From the IMG/VR virus record IMGVR_UViG_2718218402_000002: a stretch of DNA of 21,898 nucleotides; one strand, written 5' to 3'. Both the position numbers and the translations under genes were made by a program. How positions within the stretch are numbered: position 1 is the stretch's first letter; every line of letters begins with the position of its first letter. A model generated the notes under the pieces. It made no database searches. It saw nothing but the letters and a program-made list of their open reading frames with translations, and had not been told where the DNA came from. Shown here in pieces: positions 1-21,898 of this stretch. This DNA is from a virus (taxonomy: Duplodnaviria; Heunggongvirae; Uroviricota; Caudoviricetes).

Positions 1-258
1 ATGAGGGACAAACCCACGAATCATAAACGCGGTAAAAACCCGGTGTGCATCGTTTTTGATTATTCCCGCACACTCGCGCAGAAGGAGTTCCCCGTCGGGC
101 TACGGTCATGGTTAATGCGGGAATACGGCGACGATACAGCGCATGATGTGTCTGGCCTGAATACCTTTATCCGTTAAAAGGGATATCAGTTAAGTTATCC
201 CGTGCAGGGTATAAGCCATTATCAAGCCCACCCGTAGATAGGCTTTGTAATGACATCT

Positions 259-783
259 TCAATTAATCAGCAGTTCAGGCTGTGTCACCTGCAAAATGTA
301 TTCATGCTCGACAGCCAGGACACGCTTCTCTCTCTTCCGTTCGTTCATTAACCGACTGCCGATCGTACCTTTCAGCTTTGAGCGTATTTCTTTGATGGCG
401 TAGCGGTGCTGCATTTCTTCGCCAATTGCCATGCGGCGGCTCAGTTGCTCTGCCATCCAGTTGAATGCTGCGATATAGCTCTCCTTGATTGCCGCAGCAG
501 CTTTCCCGGTGAACCCCATCACAACCATGATCCAGCCATCTTTCGTCAGGCTGTACATCGGGCGAACCTTGCCCTGCTCATCGATATAATCAGCCGACGC
601 AAAATTGCGTTGGCTAAACTCACGCGAGCAATCAGCCTTAACCTGCTCGATTTTCCTGAGAACATCACCGTGTCGCTTGCCGAAGTACTTGGCAATTTTT
701 CTGGATGTGGTAACGACCTCTCCGTTTTTGGCTTGCACCATTTCTCGGAAGTCGAAGGCTGGAATAACTGAATGATTATTCAT
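259..783 (-). CDS. Rha-family phage regulatory protein (antirepressor-like)
   Basis: ORF 259..819; likely start is the ATG at 783 (MNNHSVIPAF...). N-terminal KNGEVVTTSRKIAKYFGKRHGDVLRKI matches the Rha family as I recall it. Lies downstream of the lysis cassette on the late strand. Confidence 0.7.
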   Translation of the reverse strand: MNNHSVIPAFDFREMVQAKNGEVVTTSRKIAKYFGKRHGDVLRKIEQVKADCSREFSQRNFASADYIDEQGKVRPMYSLTKDGWIMVVMGFTGKAAAAIKESYIAAFNWMAEQLSRRMAIGEEMQHRYAIKEIRSKLKGTIGSRLMNERKREKRVLAVEHEYILQVTQPELLIN

Positions 784-924
784 AGCGTCTTTACCTTTTA
801 GAAAGTGAGCCTGTCTCACAGAAAAGCCGCCCGAGAGAGGTCGCCACCTATAACGGCATTTCTCAGGCTCGCTTACTGAAAGGCTCTCGTTAATATGCGC
901 GTGAGATGCGCGTTTACTGCGGAC

Positions 925-948
925 ATAAAAAAGCCCCGCATCGCGAGG
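925..948 (-). terminator. Putative rho-independent terminator after Rz/Rz1
   Basis: On the - strand a GC-rich hairpin (CCTCGC GAT GCGGGG, one G-U pair) is followed by a T6 run (plus-strand A-run 925-932). Confidence 0.45.
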
Positions 949-981
949 CTCATTAAATTGACTTTGTGATTTGCAAAAAAA

Positions 982-1449
982 TTATTTCAGGCATTGCGTC
1001 CTGATGTACTCCTGAAGCGTTCTCAGTGCTGTTTGGTCACGGATAATTCCGTCCCGGATACCGAGAACGTTTCGTCCAGCAACTGGAGAGAGTTCGACGG
1101 TGGCATCATTGCCCATGCCGGAGGCGCTGGAGGTTTCGGCTGAGGATGGCACAGAGCATTTTCCTTTGACGAGCACCCGACCACCATTATCAAGCTTGCG
1201 CCGAAGAGCATCATTTTCAGCTTTCGCATCAGCCAACTCCTTCGTGTATTTAGCATCGAGTACATCAGCAGCACGCTGGCGTTGCTGCATGTCAGTAATG
1301 GTGGCGGTCGCCTGCTTCAGCTCACTGACTTTTTTATCACGCTGCTCTTTGTAGGCGATGGCGTTATCACGGTAATGATTAACAGCCCATGACAGGCAGA
1401 GGATGATGCAAATAACCAGAGCGGAGATAATCGCGGTTACCCTGCTCAT
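982..1449 (-). CDS. Rz: Rz i-spanin
   Basis: [16 protein letters not shown]...[18 protein letters not shown] is near-identical to lambda Rz at the N-terminus and central region. The ATG at 1449 overlaps the endolysin stop (ATGA). Confidence 0.9.
1023..1229 (-). CDS. Rz1: Rz1 o-spanin, embedded in the +1 frame of Rz
   Basis: [21 protein letters not shown] has a lipobox followed by a proline-rich stretch ([11 protein letters not shown]), as in lambda Rz1. Entirely inside Rz in another frame. Confidence 0.8.
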
Positions 1450-1943
1450 TGCTGCCCCCACAAACAGACTTCACGCTCAATATCACGACGGGTCATCAGC
1501 CCTTTCCATTGCTTACCGCCAGCGTATGTCCAGCGACGTAGCTGGTCACATGCGCCTTTGATATCACCCTGGTTTATTTTGCGAAGAAGCGTCGATGTTC
1601 TGAAATTACCAGCGCCCACGTTGTAAACGAGCGAGTAAAGAGCGCCGCGCGTTGTTTCCGGTATATCGACTTTGATGTACGGGTTAATTTGTCTGGCGAC
1701 CATGGCAAGGTCTTTATTCAGGAGGGCTTTGCATTCTGCTTCGGTATACGTTTTACCGGGAATGATGTCTTTTCCGGTGTGTCCGTGACATACAGTCCAT
1801 ACGCCAACGATATCTTCGTATGGTATGTAGCTGACACCTTCCAGGCCATCGTCACCACTCGGACCAGTGATGAGCACAGACGCTATGGCAACAGCCCCAC
1901 CACCAATAGCAGCAGCAACAGCCTTGCGTAATGATGGCGACAT
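1446..1943 (-). CDS. R: SAR endolysin (phage-21 R / DLP12 RrrD-type lysozyme)
   Basis: 165 aa. N-terminal Gly/Ala-rich signal-anchor-release segment ([20 protein letters not shown]), then a lysozyme domain closely matching DLP12 RrrD/YbcS as recalled. Confidence 0.9.
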
Positions 1944-2158
1944 TATTCACCTCTCGCAGCCTTACGCTTATCTTCTTTAATCTTGAAATAAAGGTTTGTC
2001 AGATACGTCAGCAAGCCAAACACCAGGCTACCCAATACGCCTATTGCCACCCACTGGGATGGGGAGACTTTGTCCAGCAACTGCAGTAGCCAGTATCCCG
2101 TCCCCACCGCTGACGTGGTGTATGACACACCTGTTGTTATTTTTTCCATCTGGTACAT
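1943..2158 (-). CDS. S: Class II pinholin (S21/EssD-like) with dual-start motif
   Basis: [26 protein letters not shown]...RKAARGE matches S21/EssD. Two in-frame Met codons (2158 and 2149) fit an antiholin/holin pair. GGGAG lies upstream. Confidence 0.85.
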
Positions 2159-2595: not shown

Positions 2596-2779
2596 AACTC
2601 ACAAGGAAAATGATAGAAGGAAATAACATTAGTGATGTACGCATGGCGCCTCCCGCTAAGTTCTGCAATGATCAAACAGAACTCGCTACGTGCCCTTAAA
2701 ACTCGATCATTTAGCCCCTCCAAGGAGGATTCACCATGCGGTTGATTTTTTAATAAACAGTAAACAAAAAAGTCAAGGA

Positions 2780-2890
2780 TTATTCATTCTGTTTTTTCAT
2801 CATCGGCCACAGCAATACCACAATGCCGCAGACCAGAGCGCCATCAGTCAGTACCAACATTATCCTGCTGGTGAAATCCATCATCACCAT
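2780..2890 (-). CDS. Possible small single-TM peptide (36 aa)
   Basis: Not in the ORF track (short). MVMMDFTSRIMLVLTDGALVCGIVVLLWPMMKKQNE has a hydrophobic core and a KK tail. No convincing SD; speculative. Confidence 0.2.
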   Translation of the reverse strand: MVMMDFTSRIMLVLTDGALVCGIVVLLWPMMKKQNE

Positions 2891-3023
2891 CACTAAAAGC
2901 AGGATCACAACAGCAAGCAGACACAGTTTATAAAACAATGTTCAGAAAACGCATTCAGCATGCCTAAGGTTCTATTCCTACGAATAGCCAACTTGCAACT
3001 TAAAATATTATTTATGCAGCCAA

Positions 3024-3740
3024 TTAAATTCTGGTCCTTACAATATCAACCTGAAGATTCTTATCTTGTGCTGATTGATAAATGACAAACCTTTTACTAC
3101 CTGCATTGAAAGAAGTAGACAAAACCAGACAATTATCATAACGAGCAAGAACATAATACCAACCATCATTATAATTAATCATTTCATATTCTTTCTTAAA
3201 CTGCGGTTTGTAATATCCTGTCAGAAATGAAAAAAGCCAGAAATATGCCACAAAAGCAATCATCACAATCTCAAAAAAATGTTTTTTTATAAATGGCTTA
3301 TCATAGAAGCATGATACCGATAAAAATCGCCCATAAGATCTTATCGAAATTGTAACCGCCAGCGCAATCGCTGCTGACAGTAGCAAAAGAGGTACCTGAA
3401 TCTTCTGTCTCAATATAGAAAACTCAATAATTGCCGGCACAAACAATAATTCCACAGCAAAATAAAGGCGAAATACATTTAGCTCTTGCATAGAATGTTT
3501 TCTTTTCACTGCGAAAAAGAATACAACACCAATACCCCAACCGATAAGAAATATAGCAATGACGATAACTGCAAAAAATAAACTTCTGGCAACATCATCA
3601 ACACCTGCACCTACAATCCACCATGGGAAGCCGTAGTAAAAAGAAGTACCCCATCCATAGAAATAAGCACTCCCCCATCCAAGGCATCCCATGTAGGCAA
3701 TAAAAAGTGAAGAACTCCTGAGCAGTGCACCATCCTTCAT
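3024..3740 (-). CDS. Hypothetical polytopic membrane protein (moron between Q and holin)
   Basis: ORF 3024..3782 (252 aa). Preferred start is the ATG at 3740, preceded by GGGGTGG. Several hydrophobic segments N-terminally and a polar C-terminal domain. Markedly AT-rich versus flanking genes. No family recognised. Confidence 0.6.
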   Translation of the reverse strand: MKDGALLRSSSLFIAYMGCLGWGSAYFYGWGTSFYYGFPWWIVGAGVDDVARSLFFAVIVIAIFLIGWGIGVVFFFAVKRKHSMQELNVFRLYFAVELLFVPAIIEFSILRQKIQVPLLLLSAAIALAVTISIRSYGRFLSVSCFYDKPFIKKHFFEIVMIAFVAYFWLFSFLTGYYKPQFKKEYEMINYNDGWYYVLARYDNCLVLSTSFNAGSKRFVIYQSAQDKNLQVDIVRTRI

Positions 3741-3924
3741 AACCACCCCAATACAAGATGATAACATTGGCTTACAACTCATAACAAAAGCAATTCAATG
3801 CCGTCAAGAGGTTACAGGCTAAAAAAACTCTATTACATTGCAGTCAGCATGTTTACTACACAAATACAATTCAGAGCATAAAAACTACTCGGCGGCAGGT
3901 TATTGAGACTCATCAATGACATGT

Positions 3925-3980
3925 AAAAAACGCCCATTATTGGTGTCAAGTTTCCCCAAAGTTATTCAAAAAGTCAATAT
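3925..3980 (-). promoter_or_regulatory. Late promoter pR' / qut-like region
   Basis: The - strand reads TTGACTTTTTGAATAACTTTGGGGAAACTTGACACCAATAATGGG, closely resembling the lambda pR'/qut region as recalled, about 40-90 bp downstream of the Q stop. Confidence 0.55.
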
Positions 3981-4019
3981 TATGCCGTTAATATGTTGCC
4001 ATCCGTGGCAATCATGGCG

Positions 4020-4643
4020 CTAACGTGTGATCGCATTCAAAATGTTGTCTGCGATTGACTCTTCCTTGTGGCATTGCACAACCAGAGCGTCATACAGCGG
4101 CTTAACAGTGCGTGACCAGGTGGGTTGGGTAAGGTTTGGGATTAGCATCGTCACAGCGCGATATGCGGCGCTTGCTGGCATTCTTGAATAACCGACGCCT
4201 TTACATCTTCCGCACTCTTTCTCAGCAACTATCCCCCACTGCTCTGTTTTGGCTATATCAACCGCACGGCCTGTACCGTGGCAATCTCGGCATCTTGCGC
4301 CCGGCGTAGCGGCACTACGGCAATAATCCGCATAAGCGAATGTTGCGAGCACTTGCAGTACCTTTGCCTTAGTATTTCCTTCAAGCTTTGCCACGCCACG
4401 GTATTTCCCCGATACCTTGTGTGCAAATTGCATCAGATAGTTGATAGCCTTTTGTTTGTCGTTCTGGCTGAGTTCGTGCTTACCACAGAATACAGCCATT
4501 CCGAATCCGGCTTGTGATTGCGCCATCCCCATAGCAGCCATCACATCAGTACCGGAAAGAGAGTCAGAAGCCGTGGCCCGTGGTGAGTCGCTCATCATCG
4601 GGCTTTTTGGCGAATGAAATTTAGCTACGCTTTCGAGTCTCAT
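4020..4643 (-). CDS. Q: Late antiterminator Q
   Basis: 207 aa, essentially identical to lambda Q as recalled ([29 protein letters not shown]...NILNAITR). Confidence 0.95.
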
Positions 4644-5305
4644 GCGCCTTCTCCCTGTACCTGAATCAATGTGAGGTTTCCGCAGAACACTGCGCCAGTA
4701 TCGATATACATCTGGTTGGCAAATTTGAGTGGTTTCACTGCTGGCGTATGACCAAAGATGAACGTGTCCGCGCCTTTGATTTCTTTCACGATCCCGTCTT
4801 GTGAGTTGCTGATTCGTTCGCGGTTCCAGATTACCTGCTGATGATCAACTGGCTTTCCAAACTCGTATTTATCACAAGGATAATCGGCGTGGCAGATGAC
4901 ATATTTTTTTCCTTTACTCACCAGTTCGATGATTAACGGAAGTTCATCTGCTTTATGGGCAAGAGCTTTAGCCAGAATTTCTTTGTCGTAATCGAGATTA
5001 AAGAACCAGCCACCGCCATTAAGCAGCCAGTGATTGACGTTTCCACGCTCTGATAAGCCATCAATCATCATTTGCTCATGGTTTCCACGTACAACTCTGA
5101 ACCAGGGGAATGTGATTAATTCCAGGCATTCTACGTTCTCTGTACCGCGATCAACCAAATCGCCCACCGAGATAAGCAGGTCTTTTTTGGTGTCGAATCC
5201 TATCGTCTCCAGTTTTTTCATCAGGTTCGTGTAGCATCCGTGCAGATCGCCAACTACCCAAATATTTCGGTATTTGCTGCCATCAATTCTTTCGTAGATA
5301 TTCAT
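4640..5305 (-). CDS. ninI: Ser/Thr protein phosphatase NinI
   Basis: 221 aa with metallophosphatase motifs GDLHG, GDLVDRG and GNHE; matches lambda NinI (orf221). Overlaps the Q start. Confidence 0.9.
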
Positions 5306-5916
5306 GCAACCTCACTTCTGCTATTTCGCAGGTCTTTGAGTTTCTGTTGGTACTCTGCCTTGATCGCCTTGCACTCTTCGACAGTCCAGCGATGGCGGTT
5401 ATGGTTTGATTCGATTTCGTCTACTGCTTCCTGCCCGATTCGGTTAATCAGTTCGACGCGATACGGAACGAGATTTCCGCTTTTATGCTGGTTGCACACC
5501 ACGCATTGCTTGTGAATATTGCGTTCATCAAATCGGAGTTGAGGTGCCGCAGCAGTTGTCCGGTAATGCCCGGCATCCCACTGAGCAGACGTGAGCGTTC
5601 CGCACGAGATACATGGTAAGTCGCGGTCTCTTTCTCTGATGAAGGCGTTTACGGCTTGTTGGGCTTGTTTAATCCAGTAACTGCGGGGCTTTAAGGCGAG
5701 TTTTCGAATCTTAAGTTTATCTTTCTGTTTCTGATCCTCTCGTCGTCGTTTCTTCTCTGCTGCTTTTTCCGCTTTTTCGCGTTCTTTACTTCGTCGTTCG
5801 AGTGCTATCTTGGTTCCACACTCTGGAGAGCACCACCACTGATTAGCGAATGCAGGGTGAAACCATTCCCGACATTCATCGTTTTTACATCGTCTTCGCG
5901 CTGGTTTAGCCATCAT
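5302..5916 (-). CDS. ninG: NinG (Rap) recombination protein
   Basis: 204 aa, Cys-rich, matches lambda NinG. Its stop overlaps the NinI start, leaving no room for a ninH. Confidence 0.9.
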
Positions 5917-6076
5917 CTTCTTCCTCGTGCATCGAGCTATTCGAATCGCTCATCAGCTCTGCGCAGCAGTGCTCACACACGTGAACTTCCAGCACATGCA
6001 GCTTCTGACCGCAGTTAGCGCACGTTAAAGCTCGCTCGACGCTTTCTTGTTCGTAACTTCGATTTTGGTCAATCAC
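5906..6076 (-). CDS. ninF: NinF-like small protein
   Basis: Track ORF 5906..6118. Probable GTG start at 6076 overlapping the ninE stop (GTGA), with GAGG upstream. Cys-rich (CANCGQ...CEHCC). Confidence 0.65.
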
Positions 6077-6255
6077 CTTGTTTTCCTCGCACAATGTCTT
6101 AGCCACCGGATATCCCACAGGTGAGCCGTGTAGTTGAAGGTTTTTACGTCAGATTCTTTTGGGATTGGCTTGCGTTTATTTCTGGAGCGTTTCGTTGGAA
6201 GGTATTTGCAGTTTTCGCAGATTATGTCGGTGATGCTTCGTCGCTGTCTCGCCAC
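6073..6255 (-). CDS. ninE: NinE
   Basis: 60 aa basic protein ([33 protein letters not shown]...), the size and character of lambda NinE. Confidence 0.8.
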
Positions 6256-6395
6256 ACGTCCTCCTTTTCCTGCGGTAGTGGTAACACCCCTGTTGGTGTT
6301 CTTTCACACCGGAGACACCATCGATTCCAGTAAGGTTGCCCGGGTCGAAAGCGATCGTCTTCCTTTCGCTCTCCACATCGATAACAGTGCTTCAT
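6222..6395 (-). CDS. Small zinc-ribbon protein (NinD-position)
   Basis: Track ORF 6222..6413. An ATG at 6395 overlaps the methyltransferase stop (ATGA). CYRCG...CLRC motif. Confidence 0.4.
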
Positions 6396-6982
6396 GCGAT
6401 CACCATTTTGCATGGTTTAATCGCCATGCCGGGAGCCAGTTCAAAATCGGAGTCGCACTGATTGCCCCACATATCCCACCCGGTCACTTTGTCGCGGCTA
6501 AATAACTCACAGCGCGGCACGTCGCCAAGCAACTTAGCTAACATGTCTCTTACGATCGGTGGTTTTGCACTGTGCTCCATTCTCGGTGCGGTAAAGTGCT
6601 GGCATATTGAAGCGTCCATTCTCTCAGGCAACCGCCCTCGAACAGCAAACAAGCAATCCTCGCTATTTGCCCGGGTCATATGCCCCATTCCGATCGCACT
6701 GTTGCCTTTGTGCTTATTGGTTTTGTGCCAGGTAAAGCCTTTCATAGTCATCAACCTGAATCCCCACGACTCAACTACCTTTAGCGCTTCGGCTGGCTGT
6801 GTCGGCACCCACCACATCGCTAACAAGCAAGATTCTGGATCCGCTAAATCCCATACTGGCAGTCGGCAAATGTCCTGAACATTCATAACATCGTATTTAT
6901 GTCCAGCACCGCGATTGCCATCGTTGGCTTTGTCGCGATATTGCCAAGGCGGATCTGCGTAAATAAGTCGGTATTTGTTCAT
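6392..6982 (-). CDS. DNA N6-adenine methyltransferase (MT-A70-like, DPPW motif)
   Basis: 196 aa starting [15 protein letters not shown], the catalytic motif of N6-adenine methyltransferases. Sits where lambda carries ninC. Confidence 0.8.
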
Positions 6983-7419
6983 GCAGCTTTATCTCCCCAT
7001 CGCGCTTTCCATTCCAGAGCCAGTCTCGCTTCGTCTGACCACTTAACGCCACGCTCTGCACCGAATGCCTGTATAAGCTCTAATAGCTCCGCAAATTCGC
7101 CTACACGCATCCTGCTGGTTGACTGGCCTATTACCACAAAGCCATTCCCGGCAAGGTTAGGAACAACGTCCTGCTGCTTTAATGCTGCGGTAAACACACA
7201 CTTCCAGCTTTCTGCATCCAGCCAGCGACCATGCCATTCAACCTGACGCGAAACGTCACCAAGGCAAGCCCAAAGCTTTCGATTCTGGTCTAAGCTGCGG
7301 TTGCGTTCCTGAATGGTTACTACGATTGGTTTGGTTGGGTCTGGAAGAATTTGCTGTACCGCGTGAATAGCGTTTTGCTGATGTGCTGGAGATCGAATTT
7401 CAAAGGTTAGTTTTTTCAT
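6979..7419 (-). CDS. ninB: NinB (Orf) recombination mediator
   Basis: MKKLTFEIRSPAHQQNAIHAVQQILPDPTKP... matches lambda NinB. Start ATG at 7419 preceded by GGGGGAGAGGG. Confidence 0.9.
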   Translation of the reverse strand: MKKLTFEIRSPAHQQNAIHAVQQILPDPTKPIVVTIQERNRSLDQNRKLWACLGDVSRQVEWHGRWLDAESWKCVFTAALKQQDVVPNLAGNGFVVIGQSTSRMRVGEFAELLELIQAFGAERGVKWSDEARLALEWKARWGDKAA

Positions 7420-7436
7420 GACTTCCCTCTCCCCCA

Positions 7437-14109: not shown

Positions 14110-14121
14110 GACGGAGGAATT

Positions 14122-14793: not shown

Positions 14794-14897
14794 GTTTTAC
14801 AGATAACTGGTCAGACGAAGAATTCATTCGTCAGATGAACAAAATGCTCAATCAGCACAAAGAACAGGAGAAAGATGATGATTCTGACTCTGAATGA
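14790..14897 (+). CDS. Possible small acidic ORF (35 aa) at the kil position
   Basis: The ATG overlaps the cIII stop (ATGA). MSFTDNWSDEEFIRQMNKMLNQHKEQEKDDDSDSE. Not in the track. Confidence 0.3.
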   Translation: MSFTDNWSDEEFIRQMNKMLNQHKEQEKDDDSDSE

Positions 14898-15186
14898 TAA
14901 GCGTGAAATATCGCAAATAATCGCAAGTTTTACTGATGAAGATTACGAGCGAATCAACAGTGAAGTTGATCGCCTCTGCAAACGTTGCGACCCAATAAGC
15001 GAAATGCTTCGCTCATATAAACCAGATGAACACACTAAGGACGCTATCGACTGGCTGGAAGATGATGACTGTAACTATCAGGAAAAAGCCGCTGAATGGT
15101 TCTGGGATGCAATAACCGAAAGAGTTAAGGCTGAATATGCCTTCGCAATATTCAAACGCAGACATATTTATGGAGAAGCTGCATGA
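14875..15186 (+). CDS. Hypothetical protein (103 aa) immediately upstream of recT
   Basis: RBS AGGAG. Its stop overlaps the recT ATG (ATGA). Occupies the gam-equivalent position; no family recognised. Confidence 0.55.
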   Translation: MMILTLNDKREISQIIASFTDEDYERINSEVDRLCKRCDPISEMLRSYKPDEHTKDAIDWLEDDDCNYQEKAAEWFWDAITERVKAEYAFAIFKRRHIYGEAA

Positions 15187-16094
15187 GCAATATCGTTGAA
15201 TTCGTTAAACAGCAAGAGCAGTTATTCTGCGGAGCATTGACTGAACAGACGGTGACATGGGCTAAGGAAAGCCAGTTTGCAATTCAGTATTTCCAGAAAA
15301 ACGATTACCTGGCTAAAACAGCACTGGCAAATCCAACCAGCGCACAGAACGCCATCATCAACGTTGCGGCGATCGGCATCACCTTAAACCCTGCAAGCAA
15401 ACTGGCTTATCTAGTTCCGCGCGATGGCATGGTTTGCCTTGATATCAGCTATATGGGATTGCTTCATATTGCAATGGAGTCTGGTGTTATCTCATGGGGT
15501 CAGGCAAAACTTGTTCATGCTAACGATACCTATGAGTCAAACGGGCTTGATAAAGCACCAACCCATAAATACAACGCCTTCGGTGATCGTGGTGATATCG
15601 TTGGCGTTTACTGCACAGTTAAGACGCCGGCAGGTGATTATCTAACGGAAGAGATGAGTCTGGCTGAAATTGAGGCTGTAAGGAAAACAAGCAAGGCGGC
15701 ATTCAGCGATAAAGGACCATGGGTAAATCACTGGAATGAGATGGCGCGAAAGACGGTCGTAAAGCGTGCAAGCAAGTATTGGCCTAAGGCATCACGTCTT
15801 GATAGTGCTATTCACGTACTAAACGAAGAAGAAGGTGTGTGGACTGAACCAGTTATGCCGCACAAATCAGAGGAAGATATCCGCGAAGATGAACGGAAAC
15901 GCCAGCAGGAAATAATGGATAAAGCACAACTTCTTTGCGATGAAATGGCTCAGGCAGAAAACATGGACGATTTGAAGCGATATTTTGCAGAAGCATATCG
16001 CCTGACATCTGGAATGAAATTGCAGCAGAACGTACAAGCCATTTACGCAGAATGCAAAGCGAAACTGGAGGTTGCCAGTGAGCAAACTATATGA
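15183..16094 (+). CDS. recT: RecT-family single-strand annealing protein
   Basis: 303 aa; ...AQNAIINVAAIGITLNPASKLAYLVPRDG... is characteristic of the RecT/Red-beta superfamily as recalled. Confidence 0.85.
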   Translation: MSNIVEFVKQQEQLFCGALTEQTVTWAKESQFAIQYFQKNDYLAKTALANPTSAQNAIINVAAIGITLNPASKLAYLVPRDGMVCLDISYMGLLHIAMESGVISWGQAKLVHANDTYESNGLDKAPTHKYNAFGDRGDIVGVYCTVKTPAGDYLTEEMSLAEIEAVRKTSKAAFSDKGPWVNHWNEMARKTVVKRASKYWPKASRLDSAIHVLNEEEGVWTEPVMPHKSEEDIREDERKRQQEIMDKAQLLCDEMAQAENMDDLKRYFAEAYRLTSGMKLQQNVQAIYAECKAKLEVASEQTI

Positions 16095-16560
16095 AATTGC
16101 CAATGAATACGCAAAATTGATGGATTCAGATTTAGAACCAGAGATGATTGCTGACACAATAGAAGGCATGGAAGGAGAATTTACCGATAAAATAGAGCAA
16201 CTTCTTTCCATTATTAAAAATGAATCTGGTTATGCCGAACGCCTCAAGGAAGAGGCAAAGTCACTGAATGAGCGAGCCGCAGTAATTCAAAATAAGATTG
16301 ACAGCATCAAATCATATATAGCGTCATCGCTTGAAATGGTTGGCAAGAAAAATATTCGAGCAGGTATTCACCAGGTAACAATCCGCAAACCGTCAGAAAC
16401 TGTAGAAATCATCGACTCAAGCGCCCTTCCTCCTGAATACGTTGAGTTTGAAACGACAATTAAAGCCGACAAACTGGCAATCAAACACCAACTAAAAGCA
16501 GGAATAAATATCCCCGGCGCTCAACTCAAAGTTGGGAAACCTTCACTTCTTATCAAATAA
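16078..16560 (+). CDS. Gp157-like protein
   Basis: Track ORF 16072..16560 (TTG); likely GTG at 16078 with GGAGG seven nt upstream. Family assignment from recalled resemblance to Siphovirus Gp157 proteins, which often neighbour recT/sak genes. Confidence 0.55.
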   Translation: MSKLYEIANEYAKLMDSDLEPEMIADTIEGMEGEFTDKIEQLLSIIKNESGYAERLKEEAKSLNERAAVIQNKIDSIKSYIASSLEMVGKKNIRAGIHQVTIRKPSETVEIIDSSALPPEYVEFETTIKADKLAIKHQLKAGINIPGAQLKVGKPSLLIK

Positions 16561-16571
16561 CGGTATCGCCT

Positions 16572-16886
16572 ATGAAAAAGACTCCATGGGAGAAATGGGA
16601 AGTCGATTTCTTGCGCGAAGTAGCGGCGACAATGCCAGTTGAAGTTATCGCTGAAAAACTGGAAAGGACTGAAAAAGCAGTAATGGCGAAAGCAACAAGG
16701 ATTGGCGCTGACATTGTTAGCCGACTTCGTGGAAGACGCTGGACAAGAGCCGAAGTATCACTTTTCGGTAAGTTCTCCGCAGAAGAAATAGCAATTGCAA
16801 CCTGCCGCTCAATTTATTCAGTAAGAGCTATGCGATACAAGCTAAAAAAACTCGATGAAGAAAGAGAAGGCATACGAATAAATTAA
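16572..16886 (+). CDS. Hypothetical protein (104 aa)
   Basis: ATG start, in the same operon. Internal duplication of a W...EV...L motif. No family recognised. Confidence 0.5.
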   Translation: MKKTPWEKWEVDFLREVAATMPVEVIAEKLERTEKAVMAKATRIGADIVSRLRGRRWTRAEVSLFGKFSAEEIAIATCRSIYSVRAMRYKLKKLDEEREGIRIN

Positions 16887-16902
16887 CATGGAGTAATTAA
16901 CA

Positions 16903-17184
16903 ATGAAGCTAAACATCGACCTAGGCAAATACGTTATTACCGGAACAAAACACGATCTGATTCTTAGTGAAATAGGAGTTATCAAAGAAGGTGATAATGC
17001 AGGGAAAGAAACATTAAGTCGTATCGGTTATTACAGCAAGTTTGAGCATCTGGTAAAAGAGTTATGCAACCGTGAAATCCTGTTATCTCAGGCGCAGACG
17101 CTACAGGATATTCAGCAGCATATCGAGACTTTAGGTGTATCACTTAGCATGGCTATTGACCAGTTCGTGGAGAGTAAATCATGA
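16903..17184 (+). CDS. Hypothetical protein (93 aa)
   Basis: ATG start; stop overlaps the next ORF's ATG. Confidence 0.5.
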
Positions 17185-17345
17185 GAGGACTTGCATACAA
17201 TCCCGGCATTCTTCCGGCAGAAATGATTATTCGCCAGCGCGTAAAGCCAATGCCATCGAGAGAGGAATTGCTTAAGAGAAATTCTTTTCCGTCAGTGAAT
17301 CAAAACAAATATCTGAATGCGATGTTGCGGAGTGGGAAAAAATGA
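17181..17345 (+). CDS. Possible small ORF (54 aa), coupled at both ends
   Basis: [36 protein letters not shown]...; ATGA overlap with the upstream gene at 17181 and with the downstream gene at 17342. Not in the track. Confidence 0.35.
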
Positions 17346-17827
17346 AACAAATGTCACTAATTGAGATGGATGGTTTTCTGAAAGGTAAATGCATCCCACG
17401 AGATTTAAAGGTTAACGAAACAAACGCTGAATATCTGGTGCGTAAATTTGCTGAAGCGGAGGCCAAGTGCGCGGCGCTGGCGGCGGAGAATGCTGGGCTG
17501 AAGTCTGAAGCTCCACTTGGTGCCATCGAGAATGGCAGAGCGTTTGCAGACCGTTTAGAGAATTACCAGTTCGAGTGTGAAGGCGGAAACCTAAACATGT
17601 GCAGTGATTGGCAGGAGTTTCGCCGTTTCTTCGAGTATTTATCTGAATGGGCAATGCATAGCCAGACAGAGCACCCAGCCACCGATGCTTTCCTGGCTGA
17701 AGTACGGGCGCAGGGTGTGGAGATGGCTATGGAGCATATGCAGTCGAGCGGTTCGTTAACATTTGGAGATTGCTACATATCACTTAACGAGTTCGCCGCA
17801 GAGCTTCGCAAAGGAGGTAACCAGTGA
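17342..17827 (+). CDS. Hypothetical protein (161 aa)
   Basis: ATG start; Ala-rich coiled-coil-like segment. Stop overlaps the next gene's GTG start. Confidence 0.55.
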
Positions 17828-18123
17828 GTGTATATCTCATTGATAAACGCCGACGTGGGCAACAAATACCACCTGTAGGAATTCCGAATCACACATGGTT
17901 TTGCGTACTTGATATCGATGGCATGGATAAGTTTGTTGACACTCGTCATTACTGCGATACCGCAACAGCTACTCCGGCGAAAGCAAAGAAAATGGCTGCT
18001 CTGATAGAAAACTGGACTCCACCTGATGGGTGGTGCAATGGGAATGATCGAGATTGGCATGAAAAAATGAAGGGCTATATCTGCGATTTCTTACGTAAAT
18101 GCAACGGCTTCAGGGTGATGTGA
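17824..18123 (+). CDS. Hypothetical protein (99 aa, GTG start)
   Basis: GTG start with a strong SD (AAGGAGGT, 5-nt spacing). Cys/Trp-rich. Confidence 0.5.
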   Translation: MSVYLIDKRRRGQQIPPVGIPNHTWFCVLDIDGMDKFVDTRHYCDTATATPAKAKKMAALIENWTPPDGWCNGNDRDWHEKMKGYICDFLRKCNGFRVM

Positions 18124-18124
18124 C

Positions 18125-18706
18125 ATGAACAAGATTGACTATCAGGCACTGCGTGAGGCAGCAGAAAAAGCAACGTGTGGTGCGTGGTCGCTCGAATATG
18201 GAGAGGAGAGATTTGATGCTGGTGATGCGCTAATTCATCGTGAAGTTGTTGGATATCTTCCCATTTGCAGAATTGAAGGAGCGCATCCTGAAAGCGGTTT
18301 CGATGAAGATTTCCAAATGGAACAGCAGGCCAATGCTGAATTCATCGCCGCAGCCAATCCGGCTACCGTGCTGGCATTACTGGATGAACTGGAAAGAAAC
18401 CAGCAATACATCAAACGCCGCGACCAGGAGAACGAGGATATTGCGCTAACGGTAGGGAAGATGCGTGTTGAGCTGGAAGGCAAAGACAGCAAAATAGCCA
18501 ATCTTACCGCCGAACGCGATGCTCTTCGTGAAGGTGAGATGGGCGACGCTAGGCATAGCAACACACGGGCCGCAGCTGATATCTACTTCCAACTGGTCGA
18601 GGAGTGCGAAATTCCTGCTGGCGGATCTCTGGTCGAGTACGTTGACGATATGCGCGAGAAGCTGGAAGCCGCAGAGAAGCGCATTGCTGAGCTGGAGTTG
18701 CGGTAG
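18125..18706 (+). CDS. Ea22-like protein
   Basis: 193 aa, MNKIDYQALREAAEKAT... with a C-terminal coiled coil; resembles the Ead/Ea22-like family of lambdoid prophages from memory. Confidence 0.5.
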   Translation: MNKIDYQALREAAEKATCGAWSLEYGEERFDAGDALIHREVVGYLPICRIEGAHPESGFDEDFQMEQQANAEFIAAANPATVLALLDELERNQQYIKRRDQENEDIALTVGKMRVELEGKDSKIANLTAERDALREGEMGDARHSNTRAAADIYFQLVEECEIPAGGSLVEYVDDMREKLEAAEKRIAELELR

Positions 18707-18855
18707 GTTGTGCTTCCGCAATGCTATAGCATGTTGCATCGCGTCGATTTTGACGAGCCTTACCACACTGAAATGGTTTACAGGCAGCATCAGGTTCTTG
18801 AGGCACTGCACAACGCTGGAATAAACGTCACCGAAGCAGGTAAAGGAGAGGCATC

Positions 18856-19362
18856 ATGAGCACTATCACAAGAGAATGGCTGCAGCAGGCTATCAACGAT
18901 TATGAAAGCGTTCGTGATGAGCTTCCTTTCGGGCTTGATGATTACCAGGGGAATATCCTGGCTGCCCTGCGTATCGCACTGGCATCGCTGGAAGCAGAGC
19001 CGGTGGCGTGGAAGGTAACATTCACGCAAATTGACCGTGAATATAACACGTTCACTGGTATGTATTCTGACAAAGCAGAAGTCGAACGGTGGGTGCGGCT
19101 GCATAAAGCATGTAATTTTCGGGCAGATATAACACCGCTTTATACCGCCAAGCCAGTGCCGGTAACTCCGGATGGTTGGATAAGCTGTAGTGAGCGAATG
19201 CCGGATAAGTTAATTCCGGTAATGGTCATGTATGAAGACGGTGAGATGTGGTCTGCAATGTGGAATGGCAATCGCTGGGATGATGGCACCGAATATCCGG
19301 ATCCGCACTCAGTTACGCACTGGCGTGAAATGCCAGCAGCACCGCAGCAGGAGGTGAAGTGA
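18856..19362 (+). CDS. DUF551-domain protein
   Basis: 168 aa, RBS AAGGAGAG. C-terminal WISCSERMPDK...VTHWREMP fits the DUF551 pattern as recalled. Confidence 0.55.
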   Translation: MSTITREWLQQAINDYESVRDELPFGLDDYQGNILAALRIALASLEAEPVAWKVTFTQIDREYNTFTGMYSDKAEVERWVRLHKACNFRADITPLYTAKPVPVTPDGWISCSERMPDKLIPVMVMYEDGEMWSAMWNGNRWDDGTEYPDPHSVTHWREMPAAPQQEVK

Positions 19363-19640
19363 TGGACTCCTTCGCGAAATATACGATTATTGACTGGATA
19401 GCATTCCTTCAGGTTTTGCTCATCTGGTTTTATATGGCTTACAGGAGTGGGCAGTGGATTGTCAGTGTAGCCTGTAGCAATGGATGGCGTTGGTGGAACC
19501 GAAAGAATAAAAAAGCACTAGCCTTGGATTCGTTTTACGAAGCATTCAATCTTAACAGCCTTCAGCCTGGTTCTGTCGTTGTAGTCCACACTCAAAGCGG
19601 CATGACCATTCAGATTCATAAACCAAAAGAGGAAAAATGA
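19362..19640 (+). CDS. Hypothetical protein with one TM helix (92 aa)
   Basis: ATG at 19362 overlaps the upstream stop; strong SD GGAGGTG. Hydrophobic segment IAFLQVLLIWFYMAY. Confidence 0.5.
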   Translation: MDSFAKYTIIDWIAFLQVLLIWFYMAYRSGQWIVSVACSNGWRWWNRKNKKALALDSFYEAFNLNSLQPGSVVVVHTQSGMTIQIHKPKEEK

Positions 19641-19726
19641 TGTGGCCTATATGTGTTAATTGCGGACGGATGTGCCTATCTGGATGGTGCCGAAAGTGCG
19701 ACAAATGCACGAAGAAAAGACAATAA
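19637..19726 (+). CDS. Possible small Cys-rich zinc-ribbon peptide (29 aa)
   Basis: MMWPICVNCGRMCLSGWCRKCDKCTKKRQ. ATGA coupling to the upstream gene, SD AGAGGA. Not in the track. Confidence 0.35.
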   Translation: MMWPICVNCGRMCLSGWCRKCDKCTKKRQ

Positions 19727-19797
19727 CAATCCTCGCACTCGCGTGGATTTCTTTTATCTGAACTCGCTACGGCGGGTTTTGTTTTATGGAGATGATA

Positions 19798-19938
19798 AAT
19801 GCACTTCCGAGTCACAGGTGAATGGAATGGAGAACCATTCAACAGGGTTATCGAAGCGGAGAACATCAACGACTGCTATGACCACTGGATGCTATGGGCG
19901 CAGATAGCACATGCAGACGTAACCAATATTCGAATTGA
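19798..19938 (+). CDS. Possible small ORF (46 aa)
   Basis: MHFRVTGEWNGEPFNRVIEAENINDCYDHWMLWAQIAHADVNQYSN, with GGAGA six nt upstream. Not in the track; the overlapping 84-aa track ORF looks spurious. Confidence 0.25.
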
Positions 19939-19955
19939 AGAACTGAAAGAACACC

Positions 19956-19980
19956 AAGCCGCCTGATGGCGGTTTTTTAT
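19956..19980 (+). terminator. Intrinsic terminator
   Basis: GCCGCC-tgat-GGCGG followed by TTTTTT. Confidence 0.6.
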
Positions 19981-19992
19981 TGGAGACAAGAA

Positions 19993-20337
19993 ATGTCAGA
20001 TTTGGCTATGAAGGTTTTGAAATGGCAATCGACTGGCGATGTTGGCATCAGTAGCGCAACTCTTGCCTCAATCGCATGTGGACTGAAAAAGAATATCTAT
20101 GGTCATAGCTTCGGTGCTCCACATGACGCAGCCGATTTCCGACGATGCGTTGCACTTGTTGAGCAGATTCCAGAAATCAGAGATTCATTCAACAAGGTTG
20201 CAAAGCGCGTTCCGGCATTCAAAGGAATCCTCAACGAATGGGATTCCCTCGTTGCTCTGTTGAAGTCTGAAATGAAGATACACGGAAACAAAGCACCAGA
20301 GACTTACAGAAGAATCAGCGAGCTACGCAAGGACTAA
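19993..20337 (+). CDS. Hypothetical protein (114 aa) upstream of xis
   Basis: Track ORF 19966..20337; likely ATG at 19993 with GGAGA six nt upstream, just after a terminator. Confidence 0.5.
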   Translation: MSDLAMKVLKWQSTGDVGISSATLASIACGLKKNIYGHSFGAPHDAADFRRCVALVEQIPEIRDSFNKVAKRVPAFKGILNEWDSLVALLKSEMKIHGNKAPETYRRISELRKD

Positions 20338-20454
20338 CCATGAAATAACACCGCCTCACACTCGATGAGGCCTGTTCATTGCTCAATGATATCCAGACCT
20401 ACCATCGCCGCATCAATGCGGCTTTTTCTTGCGTGTAATTGCGGAGACTTTGCG

Positions 20455-20673
20455 ATGTACTTGACACTTCAGGAGTGGAACGCACGCCAGCGACGCCCAA
20501 GAAGCCTTGAAACAGTTCGTCGATGGGTGCGCGAATGCAGGATATTCCCTCCTCCTGTTAAGGATGGAAGAGAGTATCTGTTCCACGAATCAGCGGTAAA
20601 GGTTGACTTAAATCGACCAGTAACAGGTAGCCTTTTGAAGAGGATCAGAAATGGGAAGAAGGCGAAGTCATGA
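20455..20673 (+). CDS. xis: Excisionase Xis
   Basis: 72 aa, MYLTLQEWNARQRRPRSLETVRRWVRECRIFPPPVKDGREYLF..., near-identical to lambda Xis as recalled. Overlaps the int start. Confidence 0.9.
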   Translation: MYLTLQEWNARQRRPRSLETVRRWVRECRIFPPPVKDGREYLFHESAVKVDLNRPVTGSLLKRIRNGKKAKS

Positions 20674-21724
20674 GCGCCGGGATTTACCCCCTAACCTTTA
20701 TATAAGAAACAATGGATATTACTGCTACAGGGACCCAAGGACGGGTAAAGAGTTTGGATTAGGCCGAGACAGGAGGATAGCAATCACTGAAGCAATACAG
20801 GCCAATATTGAGTTGCTATCCGGGAGCAGGCGTGAGTCACTGATAGACAGAATTAAAGGCGCTGACGCAATCACTCTTCATGCGTGGCTTGACCGATATG
20901 AAACAATCCTCAGCGAGAGGGGTATCAGGCCGAAAACTCTACTCGACTACGCCAGCAAAATCAGGGCAATCCGAAGAAAATTGCCGGACAAACCGCTCGC
21001 TGACATATCAACGAAAGAGGTGGCAGCAATGCTAAACACCTACGTAGCAGAAGGTAAAACGGCTTCCGCAAAATTAATCAGGTCAACCCTTGTTGACGTT
21101 TTTCGTGAGGCAATAGCCGAGGGGCATGTGGCTACGAATCCGGTAACAGCAACCCGCACAGCAAAGTCAGAAGTAAGGCGCTCAAGGCTGACAGCTAATG
21201 AGTATGTCGCGATTCACCATGCAGCCGAACCTCTCCCAATCTGGCTGAGGCTTGCGATGGATTTGGCCGTCGTTACAGGTCAGAGAGTCGGCGATTTGTG
21301 CAAAATGAAATGGTCAGACATAAACGACAACCATCTTCACATTGAACAGGGTAAAACAGGGGCTAAGCTCGCCATTCCGCTGACGCTAACGATTGACGCG
21401 CTCAATATCTCATTGGCTGATATACTACAGAAATGCAGGGAGGCCAGCGGCAGTGACACTATAATTGCATCAACGCATCACGAACCACTTTCCCCGAAAA
21501 CAGTATCGAAGTATTTTACAAAGGCGAGAAATGCATCTGGACTCTCATTTGATGGAGACCCGCCAACATTCCATGAACTGCGTAGCCTGTCGGCGAGACT
21601 ATACCGCAATCAGATTGGCGATAAGTTTGCTCAACGTCTTCTCGGACATAAATCAGATTCAATGGCGGCGCGGTATAGGGACAGCCGAGGGAGAGAATGG
21701 GACAAAATTGAAATCAACAAATGA
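20651..21724 (+). CDS. int: Tyrosine integrase Int (lambda family)
   Basis: 357 aa. The first ~55 aa are identical to lambda Int as recalled; the core-binding region diverges; the C-terminus (HELRSLSARLY...LLGHKSDSMAARYRD) is conserved. Confidence 0.95.
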   Translation: MGRRRSHERRDLPPNLYIRNNGYYCYRDPRTGKEFGLGRDRRIAITEAIQANIELLSGSRRESLIDRIKGADAITLHAWLDRYETILSERGIRPKTLLDYASKIRAIRRKLPDKPLADISTKEVAAMLNTYVAEGKTASAKLIRSTLVDVFREAIAEGHVATNPVTATRTAKSEVRRSRLTANEYVAIHHAAEPLPIWLRLAMDLAVVTGQRVGDLCKMKWSDINDNHLHIEQGKTGAKLAIPLTLTIDALNISLADILQKCREASGSDTIIASTHHEPLSPKTVSKYFTKARNASGLSFDGDPPTFHELRSLSARLYRNQIGDKFAQRLLGHKSDSMAARYRDSRGREWDKIEINK

Positions 21725-21775
21725 TTTTATTTTGACTAATAATGACCTACCCATGGTAATTTGTTGATAATTAAA
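21722..21775. other. attL P' arm: Int arm-type sites and IHF-like site
   Basis: TGATTTTATTTTGACTAATAATGACC aligns with the lambda P' arm (lambda TGATTTTATTTTGACTGATAGTGACC) and overlaps the int stop. TTGTTGATAATTAAAG resembles an IHF site. Similarity to lambda ends after this. Confidence 0.6.
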
Positions 21776-21808
21776 GGAATTTTAAATATGGAACTTACCT
21801 TATTTAAG

Positions 21809-21838
21809 GCCCCTTCCTCGGGAGGGGCTTTCCCGTTT
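21809..21838 (+). terminator. GC-rich hairpin with T-rich tail at the presumed phage-host junction
   Basis: GCCCCTTC-ctcg-GGGAGGGGC (8 bp, one G-U) followed by TTTCCCGTTT. May be a host terminator or part of the att core/B arm. Confidence 0.35.
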
Positions 21839-21898
21839 CAGCGTCCCGCTGAAATCGTCGGCTTACCTCCTTTCGCCCTGAATACAGTCTATCGCTAA

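Follow-up and report, generated by a model that had tools for sequence, protein, structure and literature searches.

Many-source mosaicism is the usual condition among lambdoid phages. The DNA analysed here, a viral stretch of 21,898 nucleotides that we call the window, had been described in a sequence-only reading as a three-way mosaic with a lambda backbone, a P22-type N/nut region, and phage-21-type lysis genes. We find that it is very probably the int-proximal arm of a lambdoid prophage integrated in an Escherichia chromosome, with the standard lambda gene order and a patchwork of modules. It carries the half of a lambda-like prophage that serves regulation, replication, and lysis. The window reads in the reverse sense to the lambda map: a Rha gene adjoining the late region comes first, followed by the lysis genes, Q, nin, the replication and immunity genes, N, the early-left operon, and xis-int, and last by the att junction with the host. 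Because the window holds only half of the prophage, the prophage may be defective.

Uniform similarity to a single described phage was looked for by alignment and was not found. The best single phage covers at most 49% of the window, the best complete E. coli genome at most 62%, and twelve described phages combined 83%, while the whole arrangement is reproduced by none of the complete genomes or IMG/VR loci searched. The idea of a recombinant lambdoid prophage without uniform likeness to one described phage was thus upheld. The lambda backbone was not: lambda alone accounts for 26% of the window at ≥90% nucleotide identity. By sequence comparison, the window holds at least ten already-described phage modules, not three, and their sources are as follows:

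Lambda/21-type: nin genes, replication, and Q
1H12-type: cI, cro, and operators
P22-type: N arginine-rich motif and both nut sites
21-type: N C-terminus
HK022-type: int, xis, and cII
JLK-2012, 2B8, and 434-type: lysis and late cargo
HK140/Kapi1-type: RecT early-left region
Further sources: an MT-A70 methyltransferase, a two-gene cassette in the rex slot, and several small ea patches

A literal three-source model (lambda backbone, P22-type N/nut and phage-21-type lysis inserts, plus unknown immunity genes) is consistent with the many genes that are 92–100% identical to lambda, with the exact P22 arginine-rich motif and boxB, and with lysis genes of the phage 21 pinholin/SAR family. We consider it improbable, and it is already contradicted by the identity map: lambda, P22, and 21 jointly account for just 28% of the window at ≥90% nucleotide identity, the types of int, cII, cI/Cro, and the N C-terminus listed above fall outside the model, and so do the closer relatives of the lysis cassette, the RecT block in place of Red, the replaced ninC, and the missing ninH. 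The preferred reading is that of a many-source patchwork, whose late regulatory and replication genes are:

3933-3977, minus strand: pR' late promoter and qut-like region (-35 TTGACT, 17-nt spacer, -10 GAAACT, then a -10-like AATAAT)
4020-4643, minus strand: Q late antiterminator, lambda type
4343-4356, plus strand: cII site for paQ (TTGCN6TTGC), inside Q
4640-6413, minus strand: NinI, NinG, NinF, NinE, and NinD, lambda/21 type (83–98% amino acid identity to lambda)
6392-6982, minus strand: MT-A70 family N6-adenine DNA methyltransferase (Pfam MT-A70, E 4e-25; PADLOC MTase_II, E 5e-70)
6979-9377, minus strand: NinB, Ren, P, and O, lambda/21-type replication module (98–100% amino acid identity to lambda, 97–100% to phage 21)
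9410-9706, minus strand: cII, HK022/21 type (identity 91% to HK022, 84% to phage 21, 31% to lambda)
9684-9697, plus strand: pRE cII recognition site, TTGCTGTAACTTGT

Several of these genes had been called near-identical to lambda, and amino acid identities agree for all of those: Q (98%), NinI (95%), NinG (98%), NinE (92%), NinB (98%), Ren (99%), P (99%), and O (100%). All four lambda ori iterons are matched exactly (8945-9029), and the ori region differs from lambda by one mismatch in 181 nt. The stretch NinB-ren-P-O-cII (6979-9723) is also 97.4% identical to phage 21, in a run that exceeds the one common to lambda, and on sequence grounds lambda and phage 21 are equivalent as a "backbone" source. 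The lambda segment 16045-16233, which corresponds to ninH, is missing between two blast blocks, and ninH is absent. At the lambda ninC position the window carries the methyltransferase, which showed no similarity in comparisons with lambda, P22, 21, or HK022. The pR'/qut region, also described as near-identical to lambda, is about 80% identical from the -35 element to about +10 but unrelated further on, with lambda homology stopping at 3945; aligned with lambda, P22, HK022, and 2B8, it is identical to 2B8. Its -10 element, GAAACT, is weaker than the TAAATT of lambda. Sites of the cII type (TTGYN6TTGY) stand at the canonical positions of pRE, paQ, and pI.

The antitermination region comprises the following features:

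9771-9805, minus strand: nutR, P22 type (boxA CGCTCTTTA, 9797-9805; boxB ACCGCCGACAACGCGGT, 9771-9787)
12420-12554, plus strand: OL/pL, then nutL, P22 type (boxA GCTCTTTAA, 12521-12529; boxB GCGCTGACAAAGCGC, 12540-12554)
12674-13009, plus strand: N antiterminator, an intragenic chimera with a joint at about nt 12854
13088-13288, plus strand: ral (100% amino acid identity to lambda and 21)

Both boxB hairpins are identical to P22 and carry the GACAA loop, as had been read from the sequence. The nutL boxB folds with a GACAA pentaloop, and its exact P22 sequence occurs once where chance alone would give 0.05; the nutR boxB, aligned with P22 nutR, folds into a 5-bp stem presenting GACAA flanked by C/C. 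The assignment of N to the P22 type stands for residues 1-45 (91% identity), with an arginine-rich motif, GNAKTRRHERRRKLAIER, identical to P22 gp24, but not for residues 61-111, which are of the phage-21/lambda type (90% identity); nucleotide identity to 21 and lambda imm21 begins at 12854, inside N. This exact N is present in 133 collection blocks from many different prophage backgrounds. The adjacent ral acts as a conserved linker.

The lysis and late cargo genes occupy the left end:

259-819, minus strand: Rha-family regulator (Pfam Phage_pRha, E 7e-29)
982-1449, minus strand: Rz i-spanin, chimeric, with a joint at about nt 1202
1023-1229, minus strand: Rz1 o-spanin lipoprotein, embedded in Rz in its +1 frame (lipobox VVGC)
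1446-1943, minus strand: SAR endolysin whose N-terminal signal-arrest-release segment is rich in Gly/Ala; E35, D44, and T50 are present
1943-2158, minus strand: 71-aa class II pinholin, Met4 offering a second start (PF04971 'P21 holin S', Pfam E 1e-32)
2780-3782, minus strand: late-operon cargo of low GC (36–38%)
2780-2938, minus strand: DUF3927/TciB-like membrane peptide (Pfam DUF3927)
3024-3782, minus strand: STM1630/TfpB-family membrane protein (phrog_1521)

The Rha gene occupies the position that lambda gives to bor. The lysis genes are indeed a pinholin plus a SAR endolysin, as had been read, but the nearest cassettes are those of JLK-2012 (97.4% identity), 2B8 (95–99%), and wild-type 434 (93%), with phage 21 at just 86.6%. 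The endolysin matches the PDB entries 4zpu (RrrD) and 3hde (both about E 1e-105) and has identities of 95% to 434 R, 94% to RrrD, and 93% to R21, against 22% for lambda R. The pinholin is identical to its wild-type 434 counterpart at 67 of 68 residues and is less close to EssD (83%) and S21 (75%). The window pinholin is without the Lys2 found in the S21-71 antiholin form, so regulation may differ from that of the model phages. Rz and Rz1 had been taken as lambda-like, which applies to Rz residues 1-83 (lambda/DLP12-like, 83% amino acid identity to lambda) but not to the C-terminal 72 residues, a different allele (33% identical), or to Rz1 (41%), which lies inside a block (1-1449) that is 99.3% identical to 2B8 at the nucleotide level. 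Nucleotide identity to lambda, DLP12, and Rac within Rz (87–88%) starts at 1202 and extends rightwards. Since phage 21 itself has lambda-like Rz/Rz1, the contrast drawn earlier between 21-type lysis and lambda-like Rz is moot. The late cargo is 97.8% identical to wild-type 434, and the 3024-3782 product is annotated in E. coli 22-245 as an STM1630 family protein.

The immunity region and the rex slot contain:

9813-10040, minus strand: cro, 1H12 immunity type (75/75 identical to 1H12 Cro)
10041-10118: OR/pR/pRM region (75/78 identical to the 1H12 OR region)
10119-10826, plus strand: cI repressor with HTH and S24 peptidase domains, 1H12 immunity type (phrog_4)
10924-12230, plus strand: two overlapping genes of 180 and 258 aa (DUF1828, Pfam) in the rexAB slot

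That cI and cro match neither lambda, P22, nor 21 is correct (22–24% identity for cI, 21–32% for Cro), but the immunity module, operators included, is already known from the described phage 1H12: cI is identical to its repressor at 234 of 235 positions, and the OL region, from 12420 on the plus strand, closely resembles that of 1H12. Repeated GTACT-N3-AGTAC-like half-sites in the OR region are putative operators. The rex-slot pair (phrog_2017 and phrog_1960, both uncharacterised) was absent from every described phage compared; with weak, ordered PADLOC matches to PDC-M24A and PDC-M24B, it is a candidate defence cassette expressed in the lysogen.

At the right end lie the integration genes and the host junction:

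20429-20442: pI cII site
20455-20673, plus strand: xis, HK022 type (72/72 identical to HK022, 71/72 to lambda)
20651-21724, plus strand: int, HK022 type (96% to HK022, 75% to lambda)
21785-21898: Int-proximal prophage-host junction, core GAACTTA / CCTTATT (21798-21804) / TAAGGCC

Xis and the Int N-terminus are near-lambda as previously noted, Int residues 1-55 being identical, but both genes are of the HK022 type overall, and 19722-21797 is 95.3% identical to HK022. Homology to HK022 stops at 21797 and that to K-12 begins at 21794 (94%); the final 100 bases belong to the Escherichia host chromosome, where they fall in the sibB-mdtA intergenic region with sibB/ibsB upstream and mdtA downstream.

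The largest non-lambda block, at 13.3-19.9 kb, had gone undiscussed and replaces lambda Red:

13305-19918, plus strand: early-left block of 6.6 kb, HK140/Kapi1 type (94–98% identical in patches to HK140 and Kapi1)
13325-13948, plus strand: Nmad5 (Pfam, E 1e-69)
14122-14538, plus strand: phrog_8967 ORF
14572-14793, plus strand: ORF containing a cIII-like gene (PHROG match)
15183-16094, plus strand: RecT (PHROG match)
16072-16560, plus strand: Gp157/Mu-Gam-like gene (PHROG match, Mu Gam-like)
Other early-left contents: D5-like regulator; Ead/Ea22-like, DUF551-like, and further ea genes

The exact 138-aa ORF is present in 563 collection blocks from many different prophage backgrounds. The nearest relative, L014, is a near-clonal prophage (99.95% identical over 10.6 kb) that differs from the window essentially just at this block, where it carries gam-bet-exo. 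We give next to no credence to an assembly artefact, in which two lambdoid prophages of one strain would have been joined into a chimeric contig across shared repeats such as ral and the lambdap35-like ORF: the block flanks are conserved among many lambdoid prophages, with a median of seven matching places per E. coli genome and no full counterpart of the arrangement in the searches above, but two 35-mers spanning the flanking junctions have exact matches in independent IMG/VR contigs (15 for one, at least 120 for the other), reading frames and gene order are unbroken across every joint, and the remainder is collinear (99.3–99.95%) with L014, an independent assembly at the same integration site.

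The joints of the patchwork lie at gene or domain boundaries or at short conserved linkers (ral, the lambdap35-like ORF). Four proposed earlier are real (about 2.15, 3.95, 9.47, and 12.99 kb), but there is no joint against HK022 at 20.4 kb, which is merely where lambda similarity resumes (76%) within an HK022 match unbroken from 19722. Additional joints are found at 1202, 6397/6979, 12854 (inside N), 13304, 13945, 14108, 19722/19919, and 21797. These module boundaries, like the sequence relationships and motif identities, are observed directly. The mosaic is genuine yet reflects textbook lambdoid modularity, for which "three-way, lambda backbone" is too simple a label.

The position of the joints is what homologous or homeologous recombination would leave once selection for function had acted, and we infer that such recombination took place among co-resident lambdoid phages or prophages and that the exchanged pieces are functional modules. 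Phage Rad52-like recombinases have been demonstrated experimentally to drive homology-dependent mosaic formation in lambdoid phages (PMC3945230). The most recent event can be seen directly: the near-clonal prophage, 99.3–99.95% identical elsewhere, has lambda Red at the place of the 6.6-kb RecT/Gp157/Nmad5/ea block. Several sets of interacting elements co-occur: P22-type boxB at both nut sites with the N arginine-rich motif of the same type, a lambda-family pR'/qut with lambda-type Q, the four iterons and P with lambda/21-type O, 1H12-type cI/Cro with their operators, HK022-type Int with Xis, the pinholin with the SAR endolysin, the non-lambda Rz C-terminus with a matching non-lambda Rz1, and cII with its sites at pRE, paQ, and pI. 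The window is assembled from interchangeable modules, each with a close counterpart (93–100%) in a different described phage, and the members of each interacting set were inherited jointly.

The window is a lambdoid prophage arm in the orientation opposite to the lambda map, as the ORF map, the annotation transferred from the closest E. coli genome and per-gene comparisons agree. By the ORF map and the transferred annotation, its modules follow a lambda-like order (int-xis, early-left recombination, N, cI, cro, cII, replication, nin, Q, lysis). An Rfam gathering-threshold scan and a tRNA scan found no RNA genes in the window; phage 21, in contrast, has tRNAs downstream of Q, a position where the tRNA scan found none here.

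Features of the window (coordinates, strand, feature)
259-819, minus, Rha-family regulator
982-1449, minus, Rz with embedded Rz1
1446-1943, minus, SAR endolysin
1943-2158, minus, pinholin
2780-3782, minus, low-GC late cargo
about 3933-3977, minus, pR'/qut
4020-4643, minus, Q
4640-6413, minus, NinI, G, F, E and D
6392-6982, minus, MT-A70 methyltransferase
6979-9377, minus, NinB, Ren, P and O
9410-9706, minus, cII
9771-9805, minus, nutR
9813-10040, minus, cro
10119-10826, plus, cI
10924-12230, plus, two-gene cassette
12420-12554, plus, OL/pL and nutL
12674-13009, plus, N
13088-13288, plus, ral
13305-19918, plus, early-left block
20455-20673, plus, xis
20651-21724, plus, int
right end of the window, after int, att junction

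A single-phage origin was rejected, since whole-window megablast matches covered at most 49% of the window among phages and at most 62% among 5,426 complete E. coli genomes. The sequence-only reading had proposed a three-way mosaic of a lambda backbone, P22-type N and nut sites and phage-21-type lysis genes, and had named uniform similarity to one described phage as the observation that would speak against it; such similarity was absent. The three named sources, however, explain little of the window. At 90% nucleotide identity or more, lambda covers 26% of it, P22 9% and phage 21 20%, or 28% for the three combined, and it took twelve described phages to reach 83%. The segments at least 95% identical to lambda are 3945-5296, 5302-6397, 6979-9471, 12993-13304, 13945-14108 and 19723-19982. 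In total, 793 phage records match the window, and its high-identity patches, of a kind that permits recombination, are common to other lambdoid phages. Thus, many genes are near-lambda as claimed, but the lambda backbone does not hold as a description of the whole, and judging from these alignments the label could equally be applied to phage 21: the run from NinB to cII (6979-9723) is 97.4% identical to that phage, with P and Ren at 100%. Rac was rejected as a source, its similarity being limited to 228 nt in Rz.

The best single described phage was 2B8 (Alegriavirus, NC_049952), with matches over 49% of the window. Identity between the two is 99.3% for Rha, Rz and Rz1, 95% for the holin-endolysin pair and 97-97.5% for the late cargo, Q, nin and O-P, and pR'/qut is identical. 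2B8 differs in having its own cI and cro, an NYN-domain gene in the rex slot (the position downstream of cI where lambda has rexAB), another N, a Red-type early-left region, a lambda-type int, and an esterase and IS insertion upstream of the holin. Lambda (NC_001416) shares the gene order and near-identical Q, NinI/G/F/E/B, Ren, P, O with its iterons, Ral and Xis. It differs in immunity, N/nut specificity, cII, the recombination module, the int body, the holin-endolysin type, the Rz C-terminus, Rz1, ninC and ninH. The species Lambdavirus lambda is delimited by the ICTV at a genome-wide nucleotide identity of about 95%, and with just 26% of the window at 90% identity or more to lambda this prophage falls outside it. 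P22 (NC_002371) differs in the N C-terminus, c2, cro, replication (gp18/gp12), recombination (erf/abc), lysis and int. Phage 21 (OL657228, an accession taken from PMC9119081) shares the N C-terminus, cII (84%) and NinB-ren-P-O (97.4% of nucleotides) but differs in the N arginine-rich motif, nut sites, cI, cro, Q, which is its own, and int/att (icd site).

From Q through the replication genes the likeness to lambda is close, as the sequence-only reading had claimed. Amino acid identities to lambda are 98% for Q, 95% for NinI, 98% for NinG, 92% for NinE, 98% for NinB, 99% for Ren and P, and 100% for O. All four lambda iterons are present unchanged, and the 181 nt of the ori region contain a single mismatch. 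The replication origin is of the lambda type: the O gene holds the four 18-bp iterons together with an AT-rich stretch, and P follows it. Within the nin region, the ninC position is occupied by an MT-A70 N6-adenine methyltransferase (6392-6982, minus strand), and ninH is cleanly missing between NinG and NinI (about 5296-5302). cII is of the HK022/21 type (91% to HK022, 84% to phage 21 and just 31% to lambda). Sites of the cII type (TTGYN6TTGY) occupy the canonical places: 9684-9697 for pRE, 4343-4356 for paQ, inside Q and antisense to it, and 20429-20442 for pI. The pR'/qut region (3933-3977, minus strand), also described as near-lambda, has kept its -35 element and its Q-binding region. Its -10 element, however, is GAAACT instead of lambda TAAATT, its downstream -10-like pause element is AATAAT instead of AACGAT, and beyond about +10 it diverges from lambda completely. 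The leader transcribed downstream of pR' is unrelated to lambda 6S RNA.

The lysis genes have the pinholin and SAR endolysin architecture ascribed to phage 21 and DLP12 (R 93-94% and S 75-83% identical), but their closest relatives are other phages. Taken as a whole, the cassette shows 97.4% identity to JLK-2012 and 93-99% to 2B8 and wild-type 434, compared with just 86.6-88% to phage 21 and DLP12. The pinholin matches Pfam PF04971 (P21 holin S, E = 1e-32), is 75% identical to S21 and agrees with the 434 pinholin at 67 of 68 residues, and has the two transmembrane segments of class II. Identity of the endolysin to R21 is 93% across its full 165 residues and to RrrD 94%, and the protein also matches PDB 3hde and 4zpu (E about 1e-105). 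Its alignment with R21 shows the SAR segment and E35/D44/T50, the catalytic residues of R21. In lysis of the phage 21 type, such an endolysin would be released and activated by membrane depolarization. Rz, described as lambda-like together with Rz1, is so over residues 1-83 (83%), but its C-terminus (33%) and Rz1 (41%) are not; these represent another allele, 99.3% identical to phage 2B8. Such a pattern fits co-inheritance of the mutually interacting regions of Rz and Rz1. 

The pinholin (1943-2158, minus strand) begins MYQM..., and its longer form is without Lys2 of the S21-71 antiholin (MKSM...); its dual-start regulation may differ from that of phage 21. A segment of 300 nt that separates the holin from the DUF3927 gene (2153-2455) had no match in the described phages compared. 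In E. coli, a hypothetical ORF of 132 aa is annotated here on the other strand (2301-2699, plus), for which family support is absent, and terminator-like hairpins lie on the minus strand at 2196-2224 and 2575-2593.

At the other end of the window, Xis agrees with lambda at 71 of 72 residues and Int residues 1-55 are identical to lambda, as had been proposed, but int and xis are overall of the HK022 type. Int is 96% identical to HK022 (NC_002166) and 75% to lambda, Xis agrees with HK022 at 72 of 72 residues, and 19722-21797 is 95.3% identical in nucleotides. The lambda likeness of Xis and the Int N-terminus is simply what HK022 and lambda have in common. D99, P282, K283, K287 and R319 reportedly set HK022 versus lambda Int core specificity (work of Dorgai et al. 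in 1995), and at the aligned positions the HK022-type residues are present. The att overlap differs, however: the window junction reads GAACTTA-CCTTATT-TAAGGCC, HK022 attP CAACTTA-TTCACCT-AAAGGAT and the K-12 site ACCCTTT-CCTTATT-TATGGCC. Homology to HK022 ends at 21797, and a 94% match to K-12, downstream of sibB/ibsB and upstream of mdtA, runs from 21794, which makes the last 100 bases of the window host chromosome. Relatives hold their prophage at the same sibB-mdtA site. Core-site recognition may thus be HK022-like, with the different 7-bp overlap (CCTTATT in place of TTCACCT) redirecting integration to the sibB-mdtA intergenic region. Sequence similar to this att region (21785-21898) also follows sibA. 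HK022 uses Nun and put in place of N and nut, and it differs from the window in its replication and recombination modules as well; its cII, at 91%, is a further likeness.

The P22 character of the N/nut system was upheld for its RNA-binding parts. The arginine-rich motif of N, GNAKTRRHERRRKLAIER, is identical to that of P22 gp24. Peptide and RNA are the same as those in PDB 1A4T, the P22 N-boxB structure that PMC11480772 quotes. Both boxB elements, GCGCTGACAAAGCGC of nutL (12540-12554) and ACCGCCGACAACGCGGT of nutR (9771-9787), are identical to P22; each has upstream of it a boxA that likewise matches P22, and each is predicted to form the expected hairpin, and both hairpins carry the GACAA loop of the P22 specificity class. 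Orthology to P22 gp24 does not extend to the whole protein. Residues 1-45 align with P22 at 91% identity, while for the C-terminal 51 residues (61-111) identity is 90% to the C-terminus of phage 21 N and only 29% to P22, and the joint falls at about nt 12854, inside the conserved stretch KA(I/A)SLGSLR. These alignments show N (12674-13009, plus strand) to be an intragenic chimera of a P22-type N-terminus and a phage-21-type C-terminus. Phage 1H12 has an N whose N-terminal two-thirds are as in the window but whose C-terminus is P22-type, and HK140 pairs yet another arginine-rich motif with a P22-type C-terminus. The N-terminal and C-terminal types are thus each found in more than one pairing. 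An N identical to that of the window was recorded in 133 collection blocks from many different prophage backgrounds, in which the adjoining replication, recombination and integration modules are very different.

The immunity region had been said to match none of the phages considered. This was true of lambda, P22 and phage 21 (cI and Cro 21-32% identical), but the region is the same as that of a described phage, 1H12 (Jouyvirus, NC_049947), with 234 of 235 cI and 75 of 75 Cro residues identical and near-identical OR and OL. Because of these identities, the window prophage and 1H12 should be homoimmune. The nutR site and the N-terminal 70 residues of N are also near-identical; 1H12 departs from the window in the P22-type C-terminus of its N, in a different gene in the rex slot (299 aa), and in carrying both sieB and a Red module. 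Immunity regions of the 1H12 type (cI, Cro, OR and OL) also occur in Lambda_2E9-like and Stx2a-converting phages.

Directly downstream of cI, the rex slot of the window holds two overlapping genes of 180 and 258 aa, the latter with DUF1828 (10924-12230, plus strand). In other prophages with the same N and immunity type the slot holds HipA_2 and DUF3037, an NYN-domain gene or other cargo. The two proteins match PHROGs of unknown function and, in order, the components of the PADLOC candidate PDC-M24. These latter matches are weak and partial (A, E = 1.5e-3; B, E = 6e-7), and the genes are only distantly related to that candidate. NCBIfam gave zero matches for the ten cargo ORFs queried, the rex-slot genes among them, and a literature search on DUF1828, PDC-M24 and DUF6978 found nothing relevant. 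It is possible, if on balance somewhat doubtful, that the cassette is an uncharacterized, lysogen-expressed anti-phage defense or exclusion system.

The early-left block (13305-19918), which the sequence-only reading left out of its discussion, stands in place of lambda Red. It encodes Nmad5 (Pfam E = 1e-69), a phrog_8967 ORF, a cIII-like peptide, RecT, a Gp157/Mu-Gam-like protein, a D5-like regulator and several Ead/Ea22-like and DUF551-like ea genes. Patches of 0.15-3 kb are 94-98% identical to HK140, Kapi1 and Gally, in which RecT, the Gp157/Mu-Gam-like gene, the D5-like regulator and DUF2737 reach 97-98%; the Kapi1 Nmad5 is 94% identical. These phages are without the ea-gene patches at 14117-14560, 17456-18125 and 18996-19340 and differ in immunity, int and virion types. 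The full arrangement was not found in complete E. coli genomes or in the retrieved IMG/VR loci, and the best E. coli genome covered 70% of 12600-20700. Look-ups of the exact N and of the exact 138-aa ORF gave many unrelated prophage backgrounds and a single near-clonal relative. Nmad5 is bracketed by a direct repeat, GGCCTTTATTTT, at 13293-13304 and 13950-13961; GGCCTTTATTTT is the tail of the ral terminator, and lambda has a single copy.

The comparison that isolates this block is with a near-clonal prophage in assembly GCA_053174855.1 (L014), which is 99.95% identical to the window over 2674-13304 and 99.3% over 19919-21898. L014 and similar E. coli prophages (e.g., in strain 22-245) share the integration site, immunity, N, replication, the nin genes with the MT-A70 methyltransferase and the rex-slot cassette. 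Where the window has 13305-19918, L014 has lambda-type ral-cIII-kil-gam-bet-exo and other ea genes (L014 10632-15622). This looks like a recent, single-event replacement of a whole module between two conserved linkers, ral and the lambdap35-like ORF. In an IMG/VR scan, the two junction 35-mers were present in 15 and at least 120 independent viral contigs; since they recur there, the joints are not peculiar to the assembly of the window.

The phenomenon itself is textbook. Close counterparts of every module have already been described, and N, the lysis cassette and the immunity type are each widespread; this particular set of modules was not found elsewhere, which makes the prophage a further member of a familiar kind. 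All sets of interacting parts are internally matched, as would be expected if exchange at shared sequences were followed by selection that lets only working combinations survive. That the modules are functional is something we infer from their sequences. Experiments have shown that lambdoid mosaics arise mainly by divergence-tolerant, homology-driven exchange with phage Rad52-like recombinases as catalysts (PMC3945230).

Beyond annotation the significance is small: the window adds one more case of lambdoid modular evolution. The window and L014 together capture one recent swap of a Red for a RecT/Gp157 module with defined flanks, and so provide a clear-cut instance in nature of the homology-driven exchange shown experimentally in PMC3945230. 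The least ordinary items, the rex-slot cassette and the natural N chimera, are peripheral to the mosaic finding. The cassette is a defense candidate open to testing. The chimera is a case of domain-level exchange inside a regulatory protein, and would mean that in nature the part of N that binds RNA and the part that engages RNA polymerase are exchanged independently of each other.
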